Shown: piece by piece, positions 1,210 to 61,793 of the stretch
How the letters are laid out: each line of letters opens with the position of its first letter
How positions within the stretch are numbered: position 1 is the stretch's first letter
Position numbers and translations under genes: made by a program
From: Bacilli bacterium
GTDB taxonomy: Bacteria > Bacillota_I > Bacilli_A > RF39 > UBA660
NCBI GenBank assembly: GCA_028706395.1
Contig: JAQWBL010000003.1
Coordinates: 14,039 to 78,038 of the forward strand
Direction: 5' to 3'
DNA: 64,000 bases
Notes under the pieces: generated by a model
Database searches by the model: none
The model's input: only the letters and a program-made list of their open reading frames with translations
Told to the model about the DNA's origin: nothing

Positions 1210-1677
1210 TTATTTTTTTTCTATAAGTTTTAGAGCCTTATCAATCGTTTCTTCCAAAGTTTCAAATATTTCTTTATTAGATTCCTTTTTATATAACCAA
1301 TCTAAATATTTTATTTTTTTTGCATTATTAGGACGTCCATATATAATTTTCTCTGGTTTTTTAGCAAGCCAATAACCAAACTCTACATTAGTAGTAAATG
1401 CTGGCATTTTTTCCAATTCCCTTGGCACCCAAAAAATTATGATTGTAGCATTTGTAAGAGCTTCTCTTTCTCATTCAGCTTGATCAATATAATCATTTTT
1501 ACGTATAAGCTCATCCTCTGGAATATATACAATTCCATCAAATTTTCTTTTCCTTAAATATTTGATTGCTTCAATTCTCCAAGAAATAGTATCTTCATCT
1601 CTTGGTGTTGGTCCAGCCAAAAATATTGAATTTTTATTACTAATAATAACATTCTTATCTGAATAATTTAGTTCCAT
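1210..1677 (-). pseudogene. nucleoside 2-deoxyribosyltransferase-like protein interrupted by one in-frame TGA
   Basis: ORFs 1471..1677 and 1210..1428 are in the same frame, separated only by TGA (1471-1473). The joined product is about 155 aa: ..SIFLAGPTPRDEDTISWRIEAIKYL..VYIPE..DYIDQAE-[TGA]-EREALTNATIIIFWVPRELEKMPAFTTNVEFGYW. This reads as one Nuc_deoxyri_tr2-type domain. SD AAGAGG precedes the ATG at 1677. Confidence 0.6.
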
Positions 1678-1721
1678 TGTTTACCTCTTTTCCTCTATGT
1701 TAATTATATATCATTTTAAAC

Positions 1722-1749
1722 AAAAAACGAACCACCTATTGGAAGTTCG
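1722..1749 (-). terminator. intrinsic terminator, candidate original tRNA-His terminator
   Basis: Minus strand reads CGAACTTCC-AATA-GGTGGTTCG followed by TTTTTTG (5 bp + 2x2 internal mismatch + 2 bp stem). It lies 6 nt beyond direct-repeat copy 1756-1769. Confidence 0.5.
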
Positions 1750-1755
1750 CTTCAA

Positions 1756-1926: not shown

Positions 1927-2706
1927 CTATGGTTGCATTGCTCCAAATAAAACTAACCAAGCTAACGCTGTTTTAGCAACAAGACTAAGTATAATATAAA
2001 CTCTTTCTCCATATAAATAATCTTTCCACTTACCTACTTTTTTATATTGTAGAATCATATTAATTGGGAATGTATTAAAGGCAACAAAATATGTTGCAAC
2101 TATAGCCCATACAAACCATGGAACCATATCTAAATTACCATTTCCAAACATATATATTAATATTACTATCCAAGGAGTTAATCCAGCAATTGTTCCCCAT
2201 AAAAAGGGTTCCCAATTAACTTTCTTTTTATCTTCTCCTTTATTTAATTGTTCCATTACTAATCCAAATATATTCATTAATGCATTAACAACAAATATTA
2301 ATATTAATGAACTAATATCATATACTCCAAATAATGTAGCAATTAATACTATCATTATAGAAGATGATAAAGCATATTCTATCCATCTGAATTTATTGAT
2401 TCCTTCTTTTAAACCTTCAACATATTTTTCCTTTTTATAAACTATAAAGAAATGTGCGAATGCTGATATGAATAAAAACATTGATACTAAAATACCAAAT
2501 GGTAAATCAAATAATGGTTTAGAAGCTTGTTGTAATGATTGAGTAGCAGTATTATATTCGATGAATAATTTTGTTATTGTAGGTGAAAATTCTGCTATCT
2601 TACTTATAACTGAAGTTGCTAATAATAACATTATTATTGCTTGTATTAGATGTAAAAAACCCATGTTTCTATTAAATTTAATTAATTTTTCATATTTATC
2701 TTTCAT
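1927..2706 (-). CDS. heliorhodopsin (7-TM retinal protein, inverted-topology rhodopsin family)
   Basis: 259 aa. Full-length similarity to heliorhodopsin 48C12 as I recall it: FNRNMGFLHLIQ, FRWIEYALSSSIMIVLIA (E110 counterion position), IAGLTPWIVILIYM, GERVYIILSLVAKTALAW (K245 at the Schiff-base Lys position), plus H19 and H85. SD AGGAGG at 2711-2716. Confidence 0.9.
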   Translation of the reverse strand: MKDKYEKLIKFNRNMGFLHLIQAIIMLLLATSVISKIAEFSPTITKLFIEYNTATQSLQQASKPLFDLPFGILVSMFLFISAFAHFFIVYKKEKYVEGLKEGINKFRWIEYALSSSIMIVLIATLFGVYDISSLILIFVVNALMNIFGLVMEQLNKGEDKKKVNWEPFLWGTIAGLTPWIVILIYMFGNGNLDMVPWFVWAIVATYFVAFNTFPINMILQYKKVGKWKDYLYGERVYIILSLVAKTALAWLVLFGAMQP

Positions 2707-2714
2707 ATATCCTC

Positions 2715-2927
2715 CTATTTAATTAACATATAAAAATAATAAGTTATTGTTGATACTATATTAGATAATGAGAATCCCCATATTAAATCTATAATAGTAA
2801 TTTTTAATGACCATTCTTTTATTGTAGCTAAATTTATTAAATCAAATATTACCACCTTTCTTAACAAAACAAGGTATGAACTTGCTTGTTTTCTTTGAAT
2901 ATTCTTGAAATTCTTTATTATTCTCAT
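2715..2927 (-). CDS. hypothetical 70-aa protein (possible small membrane protein), doubtful
   Basis: ORF track only. No SD upstream of the ATG. The C-terminal half is hydrophobic (IIDLIWGFSLSNIVSTITYYFYMLI). Its TAG stop overlaps the heliorhodopsin SD. Confidence 0.25.
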   Translation of the reverse strand: MRIIKNFKNIQRKQASSYLVLLRKVVIFDLINLATIKEWSLKITIIDLIWGFSLSNIVSTITYYFYMLIK

Positions 2928-3117
2928 ATTTTTTTCTAATAAAGGTATTCCAGAAAAAAATACTAATAATTATGTAATCAATATTGGGCTTATTAAACCA
3001 CCTGTATACATTATATCATTTTTATGGCAAAAACTAAGTTTTACTTATGCAAATCTTAAATTTTAATAGATTTTCTTTCTAATTTCTATTTTCCTTTAAA
3101 ATTAAAATATGCTTTTG

Positions 3118-3335
3118 CTATTTCTTCAAATGATTCCTCTTTATGTTTTGAGATTGTTTATTATATTCTTTGTCATAGAAAAGATTTTCTATTGTTGCGT
3201 CTAATAAAATTAATAGTTTATACACTACATCTATTTTAGGTATAGTATTAACACTTTCAATTTGATTTATTTTTTTCTAGTAACTCCTAATTCCTTTGCT
3301 TAGTAATCTTGAGTTATATTTTTAGTTTTAAAAAA
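3118..3335 (-). pseudogene. decayed XRE-family helix-turn-helix repressor remnant
   Basis: Minus-strand frame reads FFKTKNITQDY*AKELGVTRKKINQIESVNTIPKIDVVYKLLILLDATIENLF.. This is the classic HTH_3 pattern, with TAA (3300-3302) where the conserved Leu (TTA) of 'eLA' belongs. No start codon; a stop lies immediately upstream (3336-3338). Confidence 0.55.
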
Positions 3336-3453
3336 TTATTTTATTTTATTTACTATCACTTTATCACCCTTTCTATTATACTGCGTAATGCTTTATTTTT
3401 AAAATGAGTAGTTTCAGTTACATAATTTGATCTGTTTTGTGTTTTTAAAGCAT

Positions 3454-3481
3454 AAAAAAAGAAGACTGCAAATATGCAATC
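3454..3481 (-). terminator. intrinsic terminator now following tRNA-His
   Basis: Minus strand reads GATTGCA-TATT-TGCAGTC (7-bp stem, 1 mismatch) followed by TTCTTTTTTT. Confidence 0.5.
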
Positions 3482-3518
3482 CCTTTATTTATAAGGCCCA
3501 TTTGATAATGAGCAGTAT

Positions 3519-3532
3519 TTTCTTAATGGGGC
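3519..3532. repeat. 14-bp direct repeat, tRNA-proximal copy (TTTCTTAATGGGGC)
   Basis: Covers the last 6 nt of tRNA-His (GCCCCA on the minus strand) plus the 8 nt downstream. Identical to 1756-1769. Confidence 0.7.
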
Positions 3533-3603
3533 GACTAGTGGGGATCGAACCCACGCATAACGGAACCACAATCCGCCGTGTTAACCACTTCACCATAGTC
3601 GCC
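3527..3603 (-). tRNA. tRNA-His (anticodon GTG)
   Basis: Minus strand GGCGACTATGGTGAAGTGGTTAACACGGCGGATTGTGGTTCCGTTATGCGTGGGTTCGATCCCCACTAGTCGCCCCA. Cloverleaf folds by hand; anticodon loop TTGTGGT; T-loop GGTTCGATCC. Encoded G-1 lies opposite C73 (His identity feature) and CCA is encoded. Confidence 0.9.
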
Positions 3604-3726: not shown

Positions 3727-4149
3727 ATGAATAACTATCAAAATTATCCTAATAGCAATTATTACAAGAATATTAGTGATAATAATTATAATGCTACCAA
3801 TAATCTGTTTGACCCTTATACCGGTTTTATTCACGGTAATATGTTCCCATCCCTTTATGACCCTTACGAAATATCTAAACCATATGACATTCAACCACTT
3901 AATGATCAGGCACAGATGCTTACTTATATTGATGCTTTAAGTTTTGCAGCAATCGATTTAAATTTATATTTGGATGTTCACCCAGAAGATCGAAATATGC
4001 TTAATCTTTTCAATCAATATCGTACTCAATTAAATGATTTAAAGAAAGAATACGATTCAAAATATGGACCACTATTACTTAGTGGAGATTCATTAACTGC
4101 ATTTCCTTGGGCATGGAATAAGAAACCATGGCCATGGGAAAATAAATAG
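3727..4149 (+). CDS. cotJB: spore coat protein CotJB with an N-terminal CotJA-like extension (apparent CotJA-CotJB fusion)
   Basis: 140 aa. The C-terminal part shows the CotJB pattern LTYIDALSFAAIDLNLYLDVHPEDRNMLNLFNQY..YGPL..PWPWE. The N/Y-rich N-terminus ends in GNMFPSLYDPY, like the CotJA C-terminal motif. SD GAGGAGG; cotJC follows 10 nt later. Confidence 0.75.
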   Translation: MNNYQNYPNSNYYKNISDNNYNATNNLFDPYTGFIHGNMFPSLYDPYEISKPYDIQPLNDQAQMLTYIDALSFAAIDLNLYLDVHPEDRNMLNLFNQYRTQLNDLKKEYDSKYGPLLLSGDSLTAFPWAWNKKPWPWENK

Positions 4150-4159
4150 GAGGTAAATT

Positions 4160-4726
4160 ATGTGGATTTATGAAAAAAAACTTGAATATCCAATTAATAT
4201 AAAGCGTAAAGATACCGCAATGGCAAGATACTTGTTCGCACAGTACGGTGGCCCAGATGGTGAATTAGCGGCTGCTTTAAGATATTTAAATCAACGATAC
4301 ACAATGCCTGATGAACGAGGTAAAGCTTTATTAACTGATATTGGTACTGAGGAGATGGCGCATGTTGAAATGATTGCTACGATGATTTATCAATTAAGTG
4401 ATGATGCTTCAATTAAAGAATTTGAAGCTGCCGGTTTAGGTGGACATTATACTCAACATGATCATGCATTATTCCCAACTGATACTAATGGTGTACCTTT
4501 TACTTCAGCATATATTGAAGCAACTGGTGATTATTGGGCGGATTTAGAGAGTAACATGGCTGCTGAGCAAAGAGCTAGAGTGATGTATGAACATTTAATG
4601 AACGAAACCGATGATCCTGATGTTCTAGCACCCCTTTCATTCTTACGTCAAAGAGAAATTGTTCATTACACTAGATTTAAAGAGCTTCGCGATTACTATA
4701 TATCTAAATATAAAAGAAATACTTAA
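4160..4726 (+). CDS. cotJC: spore coat protein CotJC (manganese-catalase-like)
   Basis: 188 aa. YGGPDGELAAALRYLNQRY and GTEEMAHVEMIATMIYQL are typical of CotJC / Mn-catalase ferritin-like proteins. SD AGGAGG. Confidence 0.9.
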   Translation: MWIYEKKLEYPINIKRKDTAMARYLFAQYGGPDGELAAALRYLNQRYTMPDERGKALLTDIGTEEMAHVEMIATMIYQLSDDASIKEFEAAGLGGHYTQHDHALFPTDTNGVPFTSAYIEATGDYWADLESNMAAEQRARVMYEHLMNETDDPDVLAPLSFLRQREIVHYTRFKELRDYYISKYKRNT

Positions 4727-9546: not shown

Positions 9547-9576
9547 ATTATATCATATCCTGTTAAAACATGTAAA
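9547..9576 (-). promoter_or_regulatory. sigma-A-type promoter of typA
   Basis: Minus strand reads TTTACA (9571-9576), 18 nt, TATAAT (9547-9552). Confidence 0.5.
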
Positions 9577-9627: not shown

Positions 9628-10362
9628 TTATTCCAACACGTCTTTCGGGGAAATATCCCTATTTCTTTCAAAAACAACGAGCTTGTTGTCAATATCTACT
9701 GTAGCCAATAATATTCTTTCATAATCTTTATAACCTTGTTTTTTAAGTTCCTTTAATAACCAATCTTCACTTTTTTTAATAATTTTCAAATTATTATTCA
9801 TTAATTTGCTATCAATAATTACATTCGCACATAATCCTTGTTTTTGAATTGGTAGATTCATATCTTCAATTACTAATGGTTTATATTTCCCTTTAGGTAA
9901 AATACTTAAAGTACCATTTACCTCCATAATCGCATATTCAATTTCAGATATATCAAAAAAGCCTTTAGCACGACATTCTTCTAATAAATCATTAATATCT
10001 AGCTTAACCTTAATCATATTTTTTTCTAATAGTTTTCCATCCTGAATCATAATTGTTGGCGTTCCCATAAAAAATCGTCTTAATTTAATGCTCTTGAGAG
10101 TAGCGTAAGATACAAGATAAGCCATTACCCCAAAAACAACTACTGCTAAAATACCATTTAAATAATGAGATTCTAGATTAATAGTCATTTCAGCCGCAAA
10201 ATTACCTATTGATATTCCAATTACATAATCAAACAAACTTAATTGCGATACTTGCTTTTTTCCAAGCATTTTAGTTATTAAAAATAATGTAACTAGTGAT
10301 AACATTGCTCTGATAAATACATCGAACAACTCTACCCAGTTAACATCGACCAGATCACTCAT
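9628..10362 (-). CDS. DUF421 (YetF/YrbG-type) membrane protein
   Basis: 244 aa. LGKKQVSQLSLFDYVIGISIGNFAAE and EIEYAIMEVNGTLSILPK match the B. subtilis YetF-family pattern. Confidence 0.8.
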   Translation of the reverse strand: MSDLVDVNWVELFDVFIRAMLSLVTLFLITKMLGKKQVSQLSLFDYVIGISIGNFAAEMTINLESHYLNGILAVVVFGVMAYLVSYATLKSIKLRRFFMGTPTIMIQDGKLLEKNMIKVKLDINDLLEECRAKGFFDISEIEYAIMEVNGTLSILPKGKYKPLVIEDMNLPIQKQGLCANVIIDSKLMNNNLKIIKKSEDWLLKELKKQGYKDYERILLATVDIDNKLVVFERNRDISPKDVLE

Positions 10363-12559: not shown

Positions 12560-12614
12560 ATTATCCGCCTCTTTTCCTTCAATTATTATATCATAGACTA
12601 CTTTTATTTGGTAG

Positions 12615-13625: not shown

Positions 13626-14543
13626 TTAAATTTTTTTGATTTCAACACCTAAATAATAATGTTTTAAAATCTCATCATAAGTATATCCGAGTCTAGCCAT
13701 CGCTTCCGCACCATATTGACTCATACCGACTCCATGTCCATAACCTTTGGTTGTTATTTTAATCTTATCACCATTTTGAGCAATCGTGAAAAAAGCTGAA
13801 CGAAGATTCAAATTAGTAACAACCTCACTAGCTGAAAATATCTTACCGTTAATCATAATTTCTTTTACTCGTCCAGTACTTGTTGTTTTTAACAATTTAT
13901 ATGTTATCTTTGATGCCTTAGGAAGTCCTAATTTATTACAAAAGTCGCTTACCGTAAAATTAAAATAATCATAAAATACTGGTGACACCCCTTCTTCCCA
14001 AGACGAATCAACACTTCTTAAATAAGGAACTTTATTAATAAAAACATCTTCACTATTTTCCGTTTTTCCAACGCTAGTAGAAAAAAAGAAAGCTTCTACA
14101 ACACTTCCTTTATATTCTAAATATTCACCACGAGTTGAATTAACAGCTTGTCTTATTTTTTTTATTTTAGAATCAAAATCCTCTTTCCAAGCGGTTTTTA
14201 AATAATCTTCATCCAAATAAACTTGATTCATAATTGTATCCACTACATCATAATCTTTATCTTTATTATATGCCATTTTTTTCATCACATAGCTTCTTGC
14301 AGCCACGGTTTGAGCCTTTAATGCTTCCATATTAAAACTTACGGGCATCTCTCCGGCTAAAACACCGACAATATATTCTTCAAAAGGAACATGATCAATC
14401 TTACCATTATCTCTTTTAACTCGAACATTCATGTTGGAAACATATTTAAAATCATATTTTTCTTCTTGAATAAATATCGTTATTATTAAAAATGGTATAA
14501 AAATAATGATCAAAGTAGTAATTATTATTTTTTTAAGATCCAC
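13626..14543 (-). CDS. spoIID: stage II sporulation protein D (lytic transglycosylase)
   Basis: EALKAQTVAARSYV, GHGVGMSQYGA. GTG start with SD GGAGGG. Confidence 0.9.
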   Translation of the reverse strand: MDLKKIIITTLIIIFIPFLIITIFIQEEKYDFKYVSNMNVRVKRDNGKIDHVPFEEYIVGVLAGEMPVSFNMEALKAQTVAARSYVMKKMAYNKDKDYDVVDTIMNQVYLDEDYLKTAWKEDFDSKIKKIRQAVNSTRGEYLEYKGSVVEAFFFSTSVGKTENSEDVFINKVPYLRSVDSSWEEGVSPVFYDYFNFTVSDFCNKLGLPKASKITYKLLKTTSTGRVKEIMINGKIFSASEVVTNLNLRSAFFTIAQNGDKIKITTKGYGHGVGMSQYGAEAMARLGYTYDEILKHYYLGVEIKKI

Positions 14544-15221: not shown

Positions 15222-15392
15222 ATTATTCTCCTATCTTTTAATATAAATTAATTATATCACGACCAATTATGTTTGTACATATTATAAATACACATATAAT
15301 TCAGACTAAATATCATTTTTTTCAAAAATTAAGGTTGTTTATATACGCATTTTTACAGTTTTTTAATAACCTATAACAAGGGAGGGATTATT

Positions 15393-16084: not shown

Positions 16085-16160
16085 AGCATCCTCCTATATC
16101 TTTTATAGTGCTCTAAATGAATCCTAAAATTTATAACTTGCATCACTCAAATATATTATA

Positions 16161-16191
16161 TCAAAAAAACTCTAATATGTAATTAGAGTTT
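16161..16191 (-). terminator. intrinsic terminator after tRNA-Trp
   Basis: AAACTCTAAT / ATTAGAGTTT, perfect 10-bp stem (16167-16191), with a T-run on the minus strand. Confidence 0.75.
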
Positions 16192-16385: not shown

Positions 16386-16814
16386 ATGGCAATAATAAAA
16401 TATACAGATAGTGAAAGAGATTTATTAGCAAGACTAATGAGGGCCGAAGCTGTTGGTGAAGGCGATTTAGGAATGCTTATGGTTGGCAACGTTGCAGTTA
16501 ACAGGGGTATTGCAGATTGTTTAACTTTCAGAGATATTAGAACCATTTCCCAAGTAATTTATCAAACCCCTGGTGGCTTTTCTGGTAAAGATAGTCCCTT
16601 ATTCTTTAGTGCTCCTACGAGTTCTGAACGAAACCTTGCAAACTTAGTATTAGAAGGAAAATATTTTCATCCCGCTACCCATGCTTTATGGTTTTATTCC
16701 CCCAAAACAGGTGAGAATTGTAGTCCAACTTGGTGGGAACAAAGATTAAGTGGGAGATATAAAAGTCATTGCTTTTATATACCAGATCCTTCTGTATGTA
16801 AACAAATAAGATAA
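16386..16814 (+). CDS. spore cortex-lytic enzyme family protein (CwlJ/SleB catalytic domain, Hydrolase_2)
   Basis: 142 aa. DLLARLMRAEAVGEGDLGMLMVGNVAVNR, PGGFSG, ALWFYSP. Confidence 0.8.
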   Translation: MAIIKYTDSERDLLARLMRAEAVGEGDLGMLMVGNVAVNRGIADCLTFRDIRTISQVIYQTPGGFSGKDSPLFFSAPTSSERNLANLVLEGKYFHPATHALWFYSPKTGENCSPTWWEQRLSGRYKSHCFYIPDPSVCKQIR

Positions 16815-20807: not shown

Positions 20808-20849
20808 TTATACCACCCTACTATAAATTATATCATAAAAGGATAATCA

Positions 20850-21950: not shown

Positions 21951-22883
21951 TTATTCTATATTTATTATTTCTCGCCAATTATCAGGAAATCCAATTTTGT
22001 TTAAAATATTGTTTAATGGTACGGTATCTACTTTGCCATCTAAAACATCTATTTCATACCCTACTTCATATATTAATTGTCTAAACTCATCATTGGTCAG
22101 CATCTGCTTCATAATAATAACTAACGCATATAAATCATTTTTACCGAAATTATACTCATCATCAGTCATTTCAATATTCAATAAATAATGATATTTAGTA
22201 TCCGGAATTTTTCTTTGGGTACGATGATCATATAAGATATCTTCATGGGCACATAGATTTCTAAAATTTGAAAGAAGTGTGAGATAGATTGTTAAGGTTT
22301 CTCCATCTAAATCATAATTCTCAGATAGAGTTAATTGATCCTCTGGTTTTAATATACAATATAATTCTGATACAATCCCAAACGATAAAACCTTAACTAA
22401 AATCCACATCGGAATATACCCATAGTTACTTAGATAATGGACAGTCGCCGAATGTTGTTTCCCATTAACCCTAATTTGTCGTTTCATTTTATTTAAAACA
22501 TCATGAACTTGTTTTGTCCTATAACTATCTTGATTAAAGTTTTTAGGATCTAAATAGTTTTTCTCTTTAAATCCATACTTTTTAGATAATATATAACTAA
22601 TCTTAGACTTGATATTATTTTCAATTATTAAGATATATTTAAACATAATGTTTCTAATTCGTCGATCAAATAGAAAAGTTCCATATAACTCTTCAAAAGT
22701 TGTTCCTGGAAAAAATTGATGATCCTTATTGGAACGCATAAACAAATGTCTATAACCGTTTATAAAAAAATAATTTTCACGAAACAGAACATCCTTTGTA
22801 GTTTCTGGGTTTTCAATAATAAGACCTTTATTTCTTAATATTTCAACTTGCTCATCAAGCGTCTTAAATATCTTACTTCCCAT
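21951..22883 (-). CDS. Abi_2 family (AbiD/AbiF-like) abortive-infection protein with HEPN-type Rx4H motif
   Basis: 310 aa. KTLDEQVEILRNKGLIIENPE..NYFFINGYRHLF N-terminus typical of Abi_2. FRNLCAHEDILYDHR contains R-N-x3-H. Confidence 0.8.
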   Translation of the reverse strand: MGSKIFKTLDEQVEILRNKGLIIENPETTKDVLFRENYFFINGYRHLFMRSNKDHQFFPGTTFEELYGTFLFDRRIRNIMFKYILIIENNIKSKISYILSKKYGFKEKNYLDPKNFNQDSYRTKQVHDVLNKMKRQIRVNGKQHSATVHYLSNYGYIPMWILVKVLSFGIVSELYCILKPEDQLTLSENYDLDGETLTIYLTLLSNFRNLCAHEDILYDHRTQRKIPDTKYHYLLNIEMTDDEYNFGKNDLYALVIIMKQMLTNDEFRQLIYEVGYEIDVLDGKVDTVPLNNILNKIGFPDNWREIINIE

Positions 22884-32701: not shown

Positions 32702-32746
32702 ATATTTTATAATTTTTAGGACATGATAATATTACGAGGGATAAAT

Positions 32747-34207
32747 ATGTCAAAAATTAATAAAGATTTAAAAGTTATGGTTGAAGAAATTAAAACTAAA
32801 TTAGGTAATCCACCCGATTTAATCGTAAAAGATTTAGTGGTTAGTGGAAAGAAAGTATCAATATTATCAATTGAAAGTATGTCAGATTCAGTCATTATCA
32901 ATGACTTTATTTTGGAATACCTATCTTTTGATATTAAAATTGAAAAAAATAATAATTTGTTAGAATACTTATACTCCAATATCCCGACTAACAAATGCGT
33001 TAAAACAGAAAAAATTGATGAAGTAATATATAACTTATTAAGTGGTTTTACAATTGTTCTTGTAAATGGTTATGAGTTAGCACTATCAATCGAGACAAAA
33101 GCAAAAATTAATAGCGATATTGCTGAAGCTATCAATGAAAGAACGACCCTTGGACCGAATGATGCGTTTACTGAAAATTATCAAATAAATTTAGGCCTAA
33201 TTAGAAAAAGATTAAAAACAAGTGAATTAAAAATATCTGAAACAGTTGTTGGAAATAAAGGAAAAAGTAAAGTTGCTGTAATGTATTTAGATGATGTTGC
33301 TGATAAAGACACTGCAGAAATAATCTTTAATAGAATTAAAAATATAGATATTGACGTAATTTTTGATCCCCAACAAATTGTTGAATTAATATCCGAAAAT
33401 GAAAAAAATGTGTTTCCTAATTGCGTAACAACAGAAAGACCTGATTATGCAACATCACTTTTACTCGGTGGTCGAATTGCCATAGTTTTGGAAAATGCCC
33501 CCTACATATCAGTTGTACCGGCTAATGTTGATGATTTTTTACAACATATTGAAGACCGTTACAATCGTGTTATAAGCTCAAGTGTGAATCGTACCATTCG
33601 ATTTCTATCAATAATAATTACCCTTTTAACACCAGCTATATATGTCGCTATGACCACTTATAATCACGAAAGTATTCCTTCAAAATTATTAGTTAGTTTT
33701 TCTACACAAAGAAGTGGAGTACCTTTTTCAACAATCATGGAAGCCCTCCTTATGATTATGGTTTTCGAAATCCTCAAAGAAACTGATGCCAGGGCTCCTA
33801 ATTCTTATTCTAATTCCCTAACAATTGTTGGTGCACTCGTTTTAGGTGAAGCAGCTGTAACTGCTGGAGTTGTATCTCCAATTATGGTCATTGTAAGTGC
33901 CATTACCGCCATCAGTGGCTTAATCGTTACTTATATTGATGTTGTCAACGGAATTAGATGGTGGCGACTCATATTTTTGATTGGTGCGGCTAGTTCTGGT
34001 TTTATTGGAATAATGGTTGTAAGTTTTCTTTTTATCGCAAACGTTACCTCTATTAAGTCCTTTGGAACCCCTTTTATGAATGGAATCGCCCCAATGAAAA
34101 AAGGAAATATATGGGATAGTATCTTTCTTTCGTTTGAAAATAAATTTAATCGAACCCTTCAAAAAGATATGCATAAACCATCAAATAAAGGAAGTGAAAA
34201 TAAATGA
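32747..34207 (+). CDS. spore germination receptor A subunit (GerA/GerKA family)
   Basis: Start at ATG 32747 (MSKINKDL) with SD GAGGGA. Soluble N-domain followed by C-terminal TM bundle typical of the GerA family. TGA stop overlaps the next ATG (ATGA). Confidence 0.9.
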   Translation: MSKINKDLKVMVEEIKTKLGNPPDLIVKDLVVSGKKVSILSIESMSDSVIINDFILEYLSFDIKIEKNNNLLEYLYSNIPTNKCVKTEKIDEVIYNLLSGFTIVLVNGYELALSIETKAKINSDIAEAINERTTLGPNDAFTENYQINLGLIRKRLKTSELKISETVVGNKGKSKVAVMYLDDVADKDTAEIIFNRIKNIDIDVIFDPQQIVELISENEKNVFPNCVTTERPDYATSLLLGGRIAIVLENAPYISVVPANVDDFLQHIEDRYNRVISSSVNRTIRFLSIIITLLTPAIYVAMTTYNHESIPSKLLVSFSTQRSGVPFSTIMEALLMIMVFEILKETDARAPNSYSNSLTIVGALVLGEAAVTAGVVSPIMVIVSAITAISGLIVTYIDVVNGIRWWRLIFLIGAASSGFIGIMVVSFLFIANVTSIKSFGTPFMNGIAPMKKGNIWDSIFLSFENKFNRTLQKDMHKPSNKGSENK

Positions 34208-35403
34208 TTAAAAAATTGGTGATTTTTTTAACTTTACTTTTAGTAACTGGTTGTTGGGACTATCGGGAATTGAATGATTTAGCAATCGTTGGTTCACTTT
34301 CAATCGATATTGTTGATGATGAGTTTGTAATTGCAGCCCAAATAATGAATGCCAAAAAGGAAGGTGGATCAGGAAATTCTTCTAGTGGTTCTACAAGTAC
34401 CCCAATTGTTGTTTATAAGTTTAGCGCCAATACTATTTCTAACACTTTAAGAAAAATGACCACAGAATCTCCAAGAAAATTATATATTGGTCACATAGCT
34501 ATGGTATTGATTAGTGAAAATGCCGCTAAAATAGGATTCAAAGAAATTTCAGATTTCTTATTACGAGATCATGAATCAAGAAAACAATTCAAAGTTTTAA
34601 TTATTAAAGACAATCCCGTTGATCAGGCTCTATCCATTTTAGATCATCTTGAAACATTGACTATTCAAGCAACTCTTAATTCTTTAAACAATGCCTCCAG
34701 CTACTACGGAAATGTAACACCTATTGGTTTTGATGAATTCATAGCATTAGGTTTTTCTAAAGGAATTGAAGGCATCATTCCATATGCTATCTTAGAAGGC
34801 GATCCTAAGGAGGGTGAAAAAAAGGAAAGTACAGAGATTACAATACCTCAGGCGAAAATTATTTTAAAAGGTTTAAGCGTTTTTAAAGATGATAAACTAA
34901 TTGGATTTTTGGATGATAATGATAGTATTGGTTTCAATTTTCTTATGGGTAACCTTAAATCAGCAATGATTCCCTTTAAATGCGACGAAAAGAATTATGC
35001 AACAACCGAAATAATAAATTATAAGACTGACATGAAAATTGAAATTAAAAATGACTTGCCAGTAGTCAAAATAAAAGTGACTGGTGAAGCTAATCAAGCA
35101 GAAATAAATTGTAATGTTGACATGGAGGTTATTGAAGGTCGGGATTTTATAATGAATCTTATGAATGAGGAAATAAAAAGGTTAATGAGCAACTCCATTG
35201 ATAATGTTAAAGAAAATTTTGGAAGTGATATTTTTGGTTTTGAAAGATATTTATATCGACACAACTATAAATATTGGAAAAAGGTCGAAAAAAAGTGGGA
35301 TGAACTTTTCAAAAAGATTGAATATGAAATTGATGTCAATTTCATGCTTGCTAAAAAGGGATCAACTCTTGATTCAATTAAGGGGGTAAACAATGGGGAG
35401 TAA
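34204..35403 (+). CDS. spore germination receptor C subunit (Ger(x)C lipoprotein)
   Basis: Lipobox LLVTGCWDYRELNDLAIV. A-C-B gene order as in gerK. Confidence 0.9.
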   Translation: MIKKLVIFLTLLLVTGCWDYRELNDLAIVGSLSIDIVDDEFVIAAQIMNAKKEGGSGNSSSGSTSTPIVVYKFSANTISNTLRKMTTESPRKLYIGHIAMVLISENAAKIGFKEISDFLLRDHESRKQFKVLIIKDNPVDQALSILDHLETLTIQATLNSLNNASSYYGNVTPIGFDEFIALGFSKGIEGIIPYAILEGDPKEGEKKESTEITIPQAKIILKGLSVFKDDKLIGFLDDNDSIGFNFLMGNLKSAMIPFKCDEKNYATTEIINYKTDMKIEIKNDLPVVKIKVTGEANQAEINCNVDMEVIEGRDFIMNLMNEEIKRLMSNSIDNVKENFGSDIFGFERYLYRHNYKYWKKVEKKWDELFKKIEYEIDVNFMLAKKGSTLDSIKGVNNGE

Positions 35404-36517
35404 AAATAATAAAATAAGTGCTTTTCAATTTGCAGTTATTGGTTTCTTAAGTGGTGCTTCCCTTTTTGAGGGAGTTGCTTCCGTTTTTTTACTTGAAAGT
35501 TCAATGCAAAATTCTTGGATTACGGTGATTATTGCTTTAATTGTTGGATTATTACCAATTGGCCTTATTCTTTATGTTATTAACTATGAACCGGAAAAAA
35601 ATATCATCGAAAAAATAAACCATCTTTTTGGTCCAATCATCGGAAACATTATGAATGTCATCTTAATAGGGGTCACATTTGTTATTTTAATAACTAACTT
35701 GTGGAGCCTAGTCAATTTTGCTGAAGTTAAATATTTAACCGAGACACCTGCTACCGTTATTGCAATACTTTTTATGGCTACGGTTGTTTATTCAACTATA
35801 AAAGGAATTGAAACAATTGCTAGAAGCAGTGAAGTCTTACTTTACTTATTCATAATCTTCCAAATTTTTGTTACCTTTGCACTTATAGGTAATTTAGAAA
35901 TTGATAATTTATTCCCAATTATGGAAAATGGAATATCACCAATTTTAAATGGTTCATTTAAATTTTTAACTTATGTAATTCCATCATTTATGTTATTAAC
36001 TATAATTCCTAAATCAATGGTTGAAGATAATAAAAAAATAACTAAATATGTTATTAATGGATACGTCATTTCAATGCTTGTAATGCTATTATCAATATTC
36101 GTTGTTGTATCAGTTGTTGGACCAAACCTCGCTGATTTATATAGATTTCCTTCATATTATGTAATGAAAAAGATCCATTTGACTGGCTTTGTTGAAAATC
36201 TTGAAAATATTTTATCAATACTTTGGATAATCAATATGTATATATGCATGTCTATTAGTTTACACTATATATCAACGTATCTTAACAACGTTTTTAAAAT
36301 TAAAAGTGATCTAAAGCGAGTAATTAGTATTATAGCCATTGCTGCTATTGCAATATATCTTAAAGATAAATATTACTATAGTTCTGTTGTAGGAATTCTT
36401 ATTGTGAGAAACATTTACCCCTACATAGTAGGAGTAGCAACCTTAATTATTATTAGTATTATTTCAATTAAAATATTTTTCAATAAAAAATCAAAAGAAA
36501 TTCAAAATCAAAGCTAA
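35393..36517 (+). CDS. spore germination receptor B subunit (Spore_permease / APC-like)
   Basis: 374 aa, about 10 TM. ISAFQFAVIGFLSG N-terminus typical of GerAB/GerKB. Confidence 0.85.
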   Translation: MGSKNNKISAFQFAVIGFLSGASLFEGVASVFLLESSMQNSWITVIIALIVGLLPIGLILYVINYEPEKNIIEKINHLFGPIIGNIMNVILIGVTFVILITNLWSLVNFAEVKYLTETPATVIAILFMATVVYSTIKGIETIARSSEVLLYLFIIFQIFVTFALIGNLEIDNLFPIMENGISPILNGSFKFLTYVIPSFMLLTIIPKSMVEDNKKITKYVINGYVISMLVMLLSIFVVVSVVGPNLADLYRFPSYYVMKKIHLTGFVENLENILSILWIINMYICMSISLHYISTYLNNVFKIKSDLKRVISIIAIAAIAIYLKDKYYYSSVVGILIVRNIYPYIVGVATLIIISIISIKIFFNKKSKEIQNQS

Positions 36518-37024: not shown

Positions 37025-37064
37025 AAAAAAACCTCCTAATATATAATATTTAGAGGTTTTTTTT
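37025..37064. terminator. hairpin terminator after spoIIR that also contains the SD of the next gene
   Basis: AAACCTC (37029-37035) pairs with GAGGTTT (37053-37059), with flanking A- and T-runs. On the minus strand the descending arm carries AGGAGG (37032-37037) of the DUF204 gene. Confidence 0.6.
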
Positions 37065-37593
37065 ATATACTAAAATATTTTTTAATAAGCTCTTTTACAA
37101 AAAACTTGTATTCAACTTCCGTTGATTCTTCTGCTTCAATTAAACATAATGGTGGAAATAATACACACCACCAATTGTCACCTAATCCTTCACCAAGGGT
37201 TACTTTCACTGATTCATAATATCCTTCTTCATAAGTTACGCCTTTATATGTCTTTTCAGGAAAATAATTATCACCAAAATTTATATTATATTTTAAATTA
37301 TAATTCTCCTGTTTTAATAAAGTGCCTATTTCCTTATCAATATTATTAAGATTACCTTTAATAATACTCCTAGCTTCATTAATTGAAGTAGTATTACTAA
37401 GTAATTTAATCATACTATGTTGGAGTTTCGTACTAACCTTATTTTTAATGCTTTGATCAGCATTAGAATTGCTATTAGGTATTACTCTAAGTCTAATTGC
37501 TTCATTAGGTATAATAAACTTATTGTCATAAGAATTACTTAAAGATAAATACATAACAGTTACTATTAAGATCAACAATATTCCTTTTTTCAT
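37063..37593 (-). CDS. spoIIR: stage II sporulation protein R
   Basis: Signal/TM, IRLRVIPNSNSNADQSIKNKV, GDNWWCVLFPPLC. Confidence 0.85.
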   Translation of the reverse strand: MKKGILLILIVTVMYLSLSNSYDNKFIIPNEAIRLRVIPNSNSNADQSIKNKVSTKLQHSMIKLLSNTTSINEARSIIKGNLNNIDKEIGTLLKQENYNLKYNINFGDNYFPEKTYKGVTYEEGYYESVKVTLGEGLGDNWWCVLFPPLCLIEAEESTEVEYKFFVKELIKKYFSI

Positions 37594-57538: not shown

Positions 57539-57694
57539 ATGAACACCTTCTATATCACATTATATCATATTATGTGATAAAATTACCCTATTTATAAAAT
57601 TAAATAATCAATTTATTCATATTTAGGTATTAGTTAACACTCTTTTAATTTTCGTGAATATCTTATTAGTGAAATGAATGAAAGGGTGAATTTT

Positions 57695-58132
57695 ATGTGT
57701 GATAACAAAAAAGATAGTTGCAATTGTATTTCTGAAATACTTAAAGTAATTTTACTTTTACAACAAAACAGTACTGATGATGAAGCTTGCTTAGAAACTT
57801 GTGATAAAGGATTTTTAGGTAATAATGTTGTTTGTCCAAAATACAACACTAGACCAATAATGCTTTTCACAGCATGCGGTAACGGGACTCCTTGGTCAAT
57901 GCCTACAACAAGAGGTGTTGATTCAGTTGAAGATTTAACTTCTAAAACATCTACTGTTTTCCGTATTGAGAAGTTAGATGGATGCTGTGCAACATTTAGA
58001 GTTTTAGAAGCTTGTCCTAGAGGGGCTGAAAAAGGTTCAACAACTTTTAGAGCTACTAATTCCTTCTTTACAATTGATTTAACTTGTGTGTGCGCAATAA
58101 AATGTTTAGATGATACAGTCGTTGATTTATAA
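57695..58132 (+). CDS. spore coat/crust protein of the CotY/CotZ/ExsY family
   Basis: Start at ATG 57695 (MCDNKKDSCNC) with SD AAAGGGTG. NTRPIMLFT, TVFRIEKLDGCCATFRVL and IDLTCVCAIKCL parallel B. subtilis CotZ. Confidence 0.8.
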   Translation: MCDNKKDSCNCISEILKVILLLQQNSTDDEACLETCDKGFLGNNVVCPKYNTRPIMLFTACGNGTPWSMPTTRGVDSVEDLTSKTSTVFRIEKLDGCCATFRVLEACPRGAEKGSTTFRATNSFFTIDLTCVCAIKCLDDTVVDL

Positions 58133-61717: not shown

Positions 61718-61793
61718 CTTTCCACCCGCTTTAAATATAACTTTATTATATCACTAATGCCTTATTTTTCATAGTATATTAAAGTCTACTCAC

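Follow-up and report, generated by a model that had tools for sequence, protein, structure and literature searches.

The heliorhodopsin (HeR) gene described here has probably become a solo photosensory gene that outlived its operon partners. It is encoded in a Bacilli bacterium, within a 64,000-nt stretch of contig JAQWBL010000003.1 (assembly GCA_028706395.1) that was analyzed as a whole and is called the window below. Directly upstream of HeR are the decayed ends of two genes, DUF1295 and DUF2177, whose intact counterparts precede HeR in its closest relatives. The features of this locus, in window positions, are as follows.

1210–1677, minus strand: nucleoside 2-deoxyribosyltransferase-like pseudogene, the downstream neighbor of HeR, with a TGA at 1471–1473
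1718–1753, minus strand: intrinsic-terminator-like hairpin (1724–1753) followed by a U-tract, ~175 nt past the HeR stop
1927–2706, minus strand: HeR coding sequence, ATG start, 259 aa, intact, with H19, H85, E110 (counterion), S241 and K245 (Schiff-base Lys)
2711–2716, minus strand: Shine-Dalgarno (SD) sequence AGGAGG, 4 nt before the HeR ATG, sharing bases with the TAG that ends the DUF2177 stub
2715–2847, minus strand: DUF2177 remnant, codons ~89–130 of ~130–132 (the last ~43 codons)
2852–2999, minus strand: DUF1295 remnant, codons ~209–258 of 258 (the last ~48 codons), with a TAA and a frameshift
3010–3018, minus strand: extended −10 element TGATATAAT, 11 nt upstream of the DUF1295 stub
3462–3602, minus strand: tRNA-His (3527–3602) and terminator (3462–3483), which bound the HeR transcription unit upstream

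Identity and distribution of the heliorhodopsin

Judged by its sequence, the 259-aa ORF is a bona fide heliorhodopsin, a member of this 7-TM retinal-binding family. It matches Pfam PF18761 with 316.7 bits (cutoff 26.7) over profile positions 1–242 of 242, and the NCBIfam equivalog “heliorhodopsin HeR” (NF038020) with 296 bits against a cutoff of 100. The protein is also collinear over its full length with two members of known structure, TaHeR (6is6; E=7e-58) and 48C12 (6su3; E=2e-48). The same identity had been proposed in the original prediction by comparison with 48C12, and it is borne out by these profile searches and alignments. All of the window motifs quoted at that time (FNRNMGFLHLIQ, FRWIEYALSSSIMIVLIA, IAGLTPWIVILIYM and GERVYIILSLVAKTALAW) are present, and the 48C12 strings quoted with them are exact matches to the 48C12 sequence.

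In alignments with 48C12 and TaHeR, the key residues occupy the columns that had been predicted for them. The counterion E110, the single Glu in TM3, aligns with 48C12 E107 and TaHeR E108, a column that is marked by the structure entry for the TaHeR E108D mutant (7clj). The Schiff-base residue K245, in TM7, corresponds to 48C12 K241 and TaHeR K238. Likewise, the two histidines claimed as conserved are found in TM1 and TM2, where H19 corresponds to 48C12 H23 and H85 falls in the second His column. Together with W108 and S241, these four residues are invariant in the alignment of 194 clade sequences (194/194). Thus, the window protein has the Glu counterion, the Schiff-base Lys, both His residues, Ser241 and the seven TM segments in common with TaHeR and 48C12. 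The TM1–TM2 loop of TaHeR is slightly shorter (a 7-residue indel), and there is no difference at the level of the family. Because 20 Lys and Arg residues lie on the N-side loops of the seven hydrophobic segments versus 3 on the C-side loops, the N-terminus is predicted to be cytoplasmic. This inverted topology is the one that the original prediction had proposed to check.

The earlier description implied that the gene is unusual, and this impression did not hold. Its product is already annotated in NCBI as “MAG: heliorhodopsin HeR [Bacilli bacterium]” (MDD4547331.1, 100% identical over 259 aa). A protein search returns more than 7,300 homologs at E≤1e-10, and a scan with one genome per species finds 571 relatives. 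HeRs that are 67–74% identical are present in hundreds of genomes of Clostridia (spore-forming Clostridia included), Bacilli and Chloroflexi. Representatives come from Christensenellaceae, Clostridiaceae, Fusibacter, Anaerobium, Proteiniclasticum, Trichococcus (including T. flocculiformis), Halolactibacillus, Enterococcus aquimarinus, Erysipelothrix, Izemoplasmatales, Dehalococcoidia and Anaerolineae. HeRs had previously been described in monoderm Firmicutes, strict anaerobes included (Bulzu et al. 2021). The window HeR is therefore typical of a large clade of Firmicute HeRs and was annotated before.

At the same level of identity, HeRs (loci L006–L085) also occur in MAGs labeled Thermotogae, Fusobacteria, Sumerlaeota, Desulfovibrionaceae and Muribaculaceae. 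This scatter suggests horizontal transfer between anaerobes that share habitats, mis-binning, or a combination of the two.

As originally claimed, no retinal or carotenoid gene is found nearby. Among the ~65 ORFs of the 64-kb window, a Pfam search identified no intact gene for photolyase (PF00875), glnA, NAD+ synthetase, DegV, blh or crt. The absence of blh is the published norm. This gene is present in HeR genomes mostly where another rhodopsin is encoded (Chazan et al. 2021, bioRxiv 10.1101/2021.02.16.431466), and so missing retinal genes are expected, and are the rule, for a genome that encodes only HeR. The decayed partner operon is the only new element at this locus, a modest curiosity beyond which the window HeR adds nothing new.

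Remnants of a partner operon

The claim that HeR has no partner genes nearby is correct for intact genes but overlooks the pseudogene remnants of DUF1295 and DUF2177 at positions 2715–2999, directly upstream. The N-terminal ~88 codons of DUF2177 (~275 bp) have been deleted. What is left forms the end of a chimeric ORF of 70 aa (2715–2927) directly upstream of HeR, which lacks an SD and matches only positions 80–123 of the 124 in the DUF2177 profile. The loss from DUF1295 comprises its first ~630 bp, such that window positions 2995 to 2852 align locally with nt 631–773 of the 777-nt gene. This stub additionally carries an in-frame TAA (2970–2972) and a frameshift caused by the loss of 1 nt in an A-run (2929–2935). 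Both remnants were placed by local alignments; a global DNA alignment with MAFFT misplaced the DUF1295 stub. Consequently, the window has neither an intact DUF2177 gene directly upstream of HeR nor an intact DUF1295 gene before it. No other copy or remnant of either gene, or of the other neighbor genes of the relatives, was found in the 64 kb.

In relatives with HeRs 79–90% identical to that of the window, the gene order is always DUF1295 (257–260 aa), DUF2177 (130–132 aa) and HeR, with gaps of ~9 nt. Six distinct lineages fall in this range of identity (L001, L005, L007, L087, L088 and L089), and the intact operon is found across L001–L007 and L087–L089. Because the junction is homologous and the closest relatives are all intact, the window locus descends from a DUF1295-DUF2177-HeR operon. 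Such arrangements have been noted before, as an association of HeR with DUF2177, DUF1295 and DegV (Chazan et al. 2021) and as a DUF2177 operon group of HeRs (Cho et al. 2024, PMC11109279). Like these operons, the window retains the DUF2177-HeR junction and its SD; unlike them, it has stubs in place of the DUF1295 and DUF2177 genes and no DegV gene in 64 kb.

In one relative, the operon is extended to DUF1295-DUF2177-HeR-photolyase-flavodoxin (L088 2762–6627), with the photolyase gene directly downstream of HeR. This locus unites the two published types of HeR neighbor, DUF2177 and photolyase. When neighbors were clustered for 80 genome loci, no universal HeR neighbor emerged in the wider clade.

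The decay of the partner genes is also seen in a sister MAG (L086; GCA_028685535.1), which is 99.96% identical to the window over 5,607 nt, shares the gene order and the stub with it, and shows no difference across the remnants. Since this independent assembly carries the identical decayed state, the decay is real. One lesion, the 1-nt change in a homopolymer, is a typical kind of error, and it could be argued that the upstream genes only look decayed because of faulty assembly or sequencing and that the operon is really intact. Yet the main lesions are deletions of ~630 bp and ~275 bp, and the other parts of the window contain long, undamaged ORFs. With the second assembly agreeing in structure, we regard an artefact as next to inconceivable.

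The signals for HeR expression have fared better than the partner genes. The strong SD reported originally is confirmed, and L001, with its intact operon, has exactly the same sequence at the DUF2177-HeR junction, this SD included. Further upstream, all relatives have an extended −10 element 25–31 nt before the DUF1295 start. A generic sigma-70 scan of the window did not rise above the chance level for DNA this rich in A and T (24 sites vs 20.3 expected), and therefore a genome-specific test based on TGATATAAT was used instead. This element occurs at 9 sites versus 4.25 expected, of which 8 are just upstream of minus-strand genes. Besides the site at 3010–3018, these are the following.

9547–9555, 12585–12593, 15251–15259, 16155–16163, 20827–20835, 57559–57567 and 61745–61753, minus strand: other TGATATAAT sites, before genes including TypA, MreB and RpiB

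The placement of these sites suggests that leaders are very short in this genome. With TGATATAAT at 3010–3018 and an extended −10 element in each of the relatives, the operon promoter seems to have survived the deletion, and positions 3010–3018 probably represent it. The region between the tRNA-His terminator and the DUF1295 stub (3003–3460) is ~460 bp of AT-rich DNA that is free of ORFs and has no detectable similarity to the upstream genes of the relatives.

Constraint on HeR and its proposed role

HeR in the window remains under constraint. Pairwise dN/dS values between this gene and those of relatives are 0.07–0.13 (~0.09), compared with 0.06–0.10 among the intact-operon relatives, although these tests average over the whole branch and do not isolate the period after the deletions. 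No disabling lesion is present in the 780 nt of the gene. In the 194-sequence alignment, the window protein deviates at 0 of the 121 columns that are at least 95% conserved in the clade. Of the sites at which the six intact-operon relatives all agree, 8 of 55 are altered in the remnants and 4 of 180 in HeR (Fisher p=0.0013). The changes in the remnants include W to C, P to S, T to F and T to I, whereas all 4 in HeR are conservative.

The sister MAG gives reason for caution. Its only two differences from the window are both nonsynonymous and both in HeR (L086 4802–5581). These substitutions, N211K and L242F, are radical, lie close to the Schiff-base Lys, and affect columns that are invariant in 193/194 and 194/194 clade sequences, respectively. 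They could represent early decay of HeR in the L086 strain.

The closest characterized homolog of the window HeR is TfHeR from Trichococcus flocculiformis, which belongs to the same Firmicute HeR clade (L084) and is identical at 181 of 259 residues (70%). TfHeR binds a class 2 CPD photolyase and increases its activity ~3-fold, and its residues R162 and K227 are essential for this binding (Shim et al. 2022, PMC9769723). Of these, K227 is retained as K223 in the window protein and R162 is replaced by E158, at a position that varies across the subclade, L088 included. The counterpart of TfHeR E97 is ambiguous because this residue falls in an indel, where the window HeR has a 3-residue deletion. 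Furthermore, genes for photolyase and DUF2238 adjoin the TfHeR gene, and neither is next to HeR in the window. Given the replacement of R162 by E158, the photolyase-helper mechanism of TfHeR cannot simply be transferred.

A different functional context is suggested by the ancestral partners. In Chlamydomonas, singlet oxygen induces a set of SAK1-dependent genes, linked to photo-oxidative stress and lipid modification, that comprises DUF2177 and DUF1295 as well as cyclopropane fatty acid synthases and DUF1365. A link between HeR and membrane lipid remodeling has been proposed (Chazan et al. 2021). In the history that we favor, the ancestor of the subclade carried HeR as the third gene of a DUF1295-DUF2177-HeR operon that probably served as a light or photo-oxidative-stress module. 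In the lineage of the window, two deletions, one nonsense mutation and one frameshift destroyed DUF1295 and DUF2177 but spared HeR, its SD and, as it seems, the promoter of the operon. HeR would now be a solo gene that is presumably transcribed from that promoter behind a pseudogene leader of ~300 nt. By analogy with characterized bacterial HeRs, its product most likely senses light with a slow photocycle and acts on other proteins through direct contact, and it would transport no ions. The partner protein is probably encoded elsewhere in the genome, and the chromophore might be obtained from outside the cell or made by a pathway that has yet to be recognized.

The main rival to this solo-sensor reading sees HeR as a disappearing relic: a lineage no longer exposed to light would be losing its light-response module piece by piece, with HeR as the one gene not yet hit. 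Decay is indeed evident on both flanks, with the DUF1295 and DUF2177 stubs upstream and a nonsense-broken Nuc_deoxyri_tr2 gene downstream, and the sole differences between the window and the sister MAG are those two substitutions at invariant HeR columns. The small excess of nonsynonymous divergence in the remnants suggests, as a rough estimate, that inactivation was fairly recent. The window HeR, however, carries no disabling lesion and no deviation at conserved columns, and its few changes at invariant sites are conservative, whereas those in the remnants are often radical and come along with a nonsense codon and a frameshift. The SD and promoter element, too, have been preserved. For these reasons, we judge the relic reading to be unlikely. 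Slightly less doubtful, though still improbable, is the idea that HeR acts as a photolyase helper in the manner of TfHeR, on a photolyase whose gene lies in another part of the genome. The 70% identity, the conserved K227 and the photolyase gene directly downstream of HeR in L088 are in its favor, and they are set against the missing photolyase in the 64-kb window, the loss of the essential R162 at a position that is variable even in L088, and the location of E97 in an indel.

A light-driven or light-gated ion transporter would be a very surprising outcome. Proton transport by a viral HeR has been reported, as cited in PMC11109279, but the characterized bacterial and archaeal HeRs are reported to be non-transporting regulators (PMC11109279; PMC9769723), and the window protein is typical of the bacterial clade, including at its conserved columns. 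A solo photosensory HeR that outlived its partners therefore remains the reading that we prefer.

There is perhaps an even chance that this lineage constitutes a natural knock-out of DUF1295 and DUF2177 in which HeR is kept under purifying selection together with its promoter. If so, the core function of HeR would be independent of these two genes, and sister lineages with intact operons would show what the partners add. HeR function is only partly understood, and DUF2177 and DUF1295 are the neighbors most specific to HeR genes. The combination of decayed partners and a conserved HeR argues against obligate dependence on them and, with the intact-operon sister lineages, offers a comparative system.

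Genomic setting of the locus

The window has a GC content of ~28%, with no local anomaly, and contains many sporulation genes. This gene content marks the host as a spore-former, in keeping with the sporulating low-GC Firmicute named in the original prediction. The sporulation genes are as follows.

3727–4149, plus strand: CotJB
4160–4726: CotJC/Mn-catalase
9628–10362: YetF
13626–14543: SpoIID
16386–16814: SleB-type hydrolase
32723–36517: GerA/GerAC/spore-permease receptor genes
37063–37593: SpoIIR
57674–58132: CotZ

The N-terminus of the CotJB ORF has a weak CotJA-like match (PF11007, E=0.0015, residues 26–47), and 3727–4149 may thus encode a CotJA-CotJB fusion.

Downstream of HeR, two small ORFs at 1210–1677 form one 157-codon frame that matches PF15891 with 44.6 bits when a Trp is restored at the TGA (1471–1473), which sits where a Trp is expected. 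Relatives labeled Mycoplasmatota prompted us to consider that TGA encodes Trp (genetic code 4). This possibility was rejected, as TGA ends 6 of the 65 ORFs and the long ORFs are intact under table 11. With TGA serving as an ordinary stop in the rest of the window, the codon at 1471–1473 is a nonsense mutation. The pseudogene is a sign of gene decay in the neighborhood and no partner of HeR.

Two further observations concern this region and the wider window. Between the HeR stop and the terminator hairpin is a 27-aa ORF, MNENSNNNQIYFLQIAGLSLLNAILCF, at 1807–1890 on the minus strand, with the SD GAGGGG; it has no Pfam match and is absent from the relatives, whose downstream genes differ. In addition, an Abi_2 (abortive-infection-like) gene is located at 21951–22883 on the minus strand, between genes for an HtrA-type protease and a cell-wall amidase.
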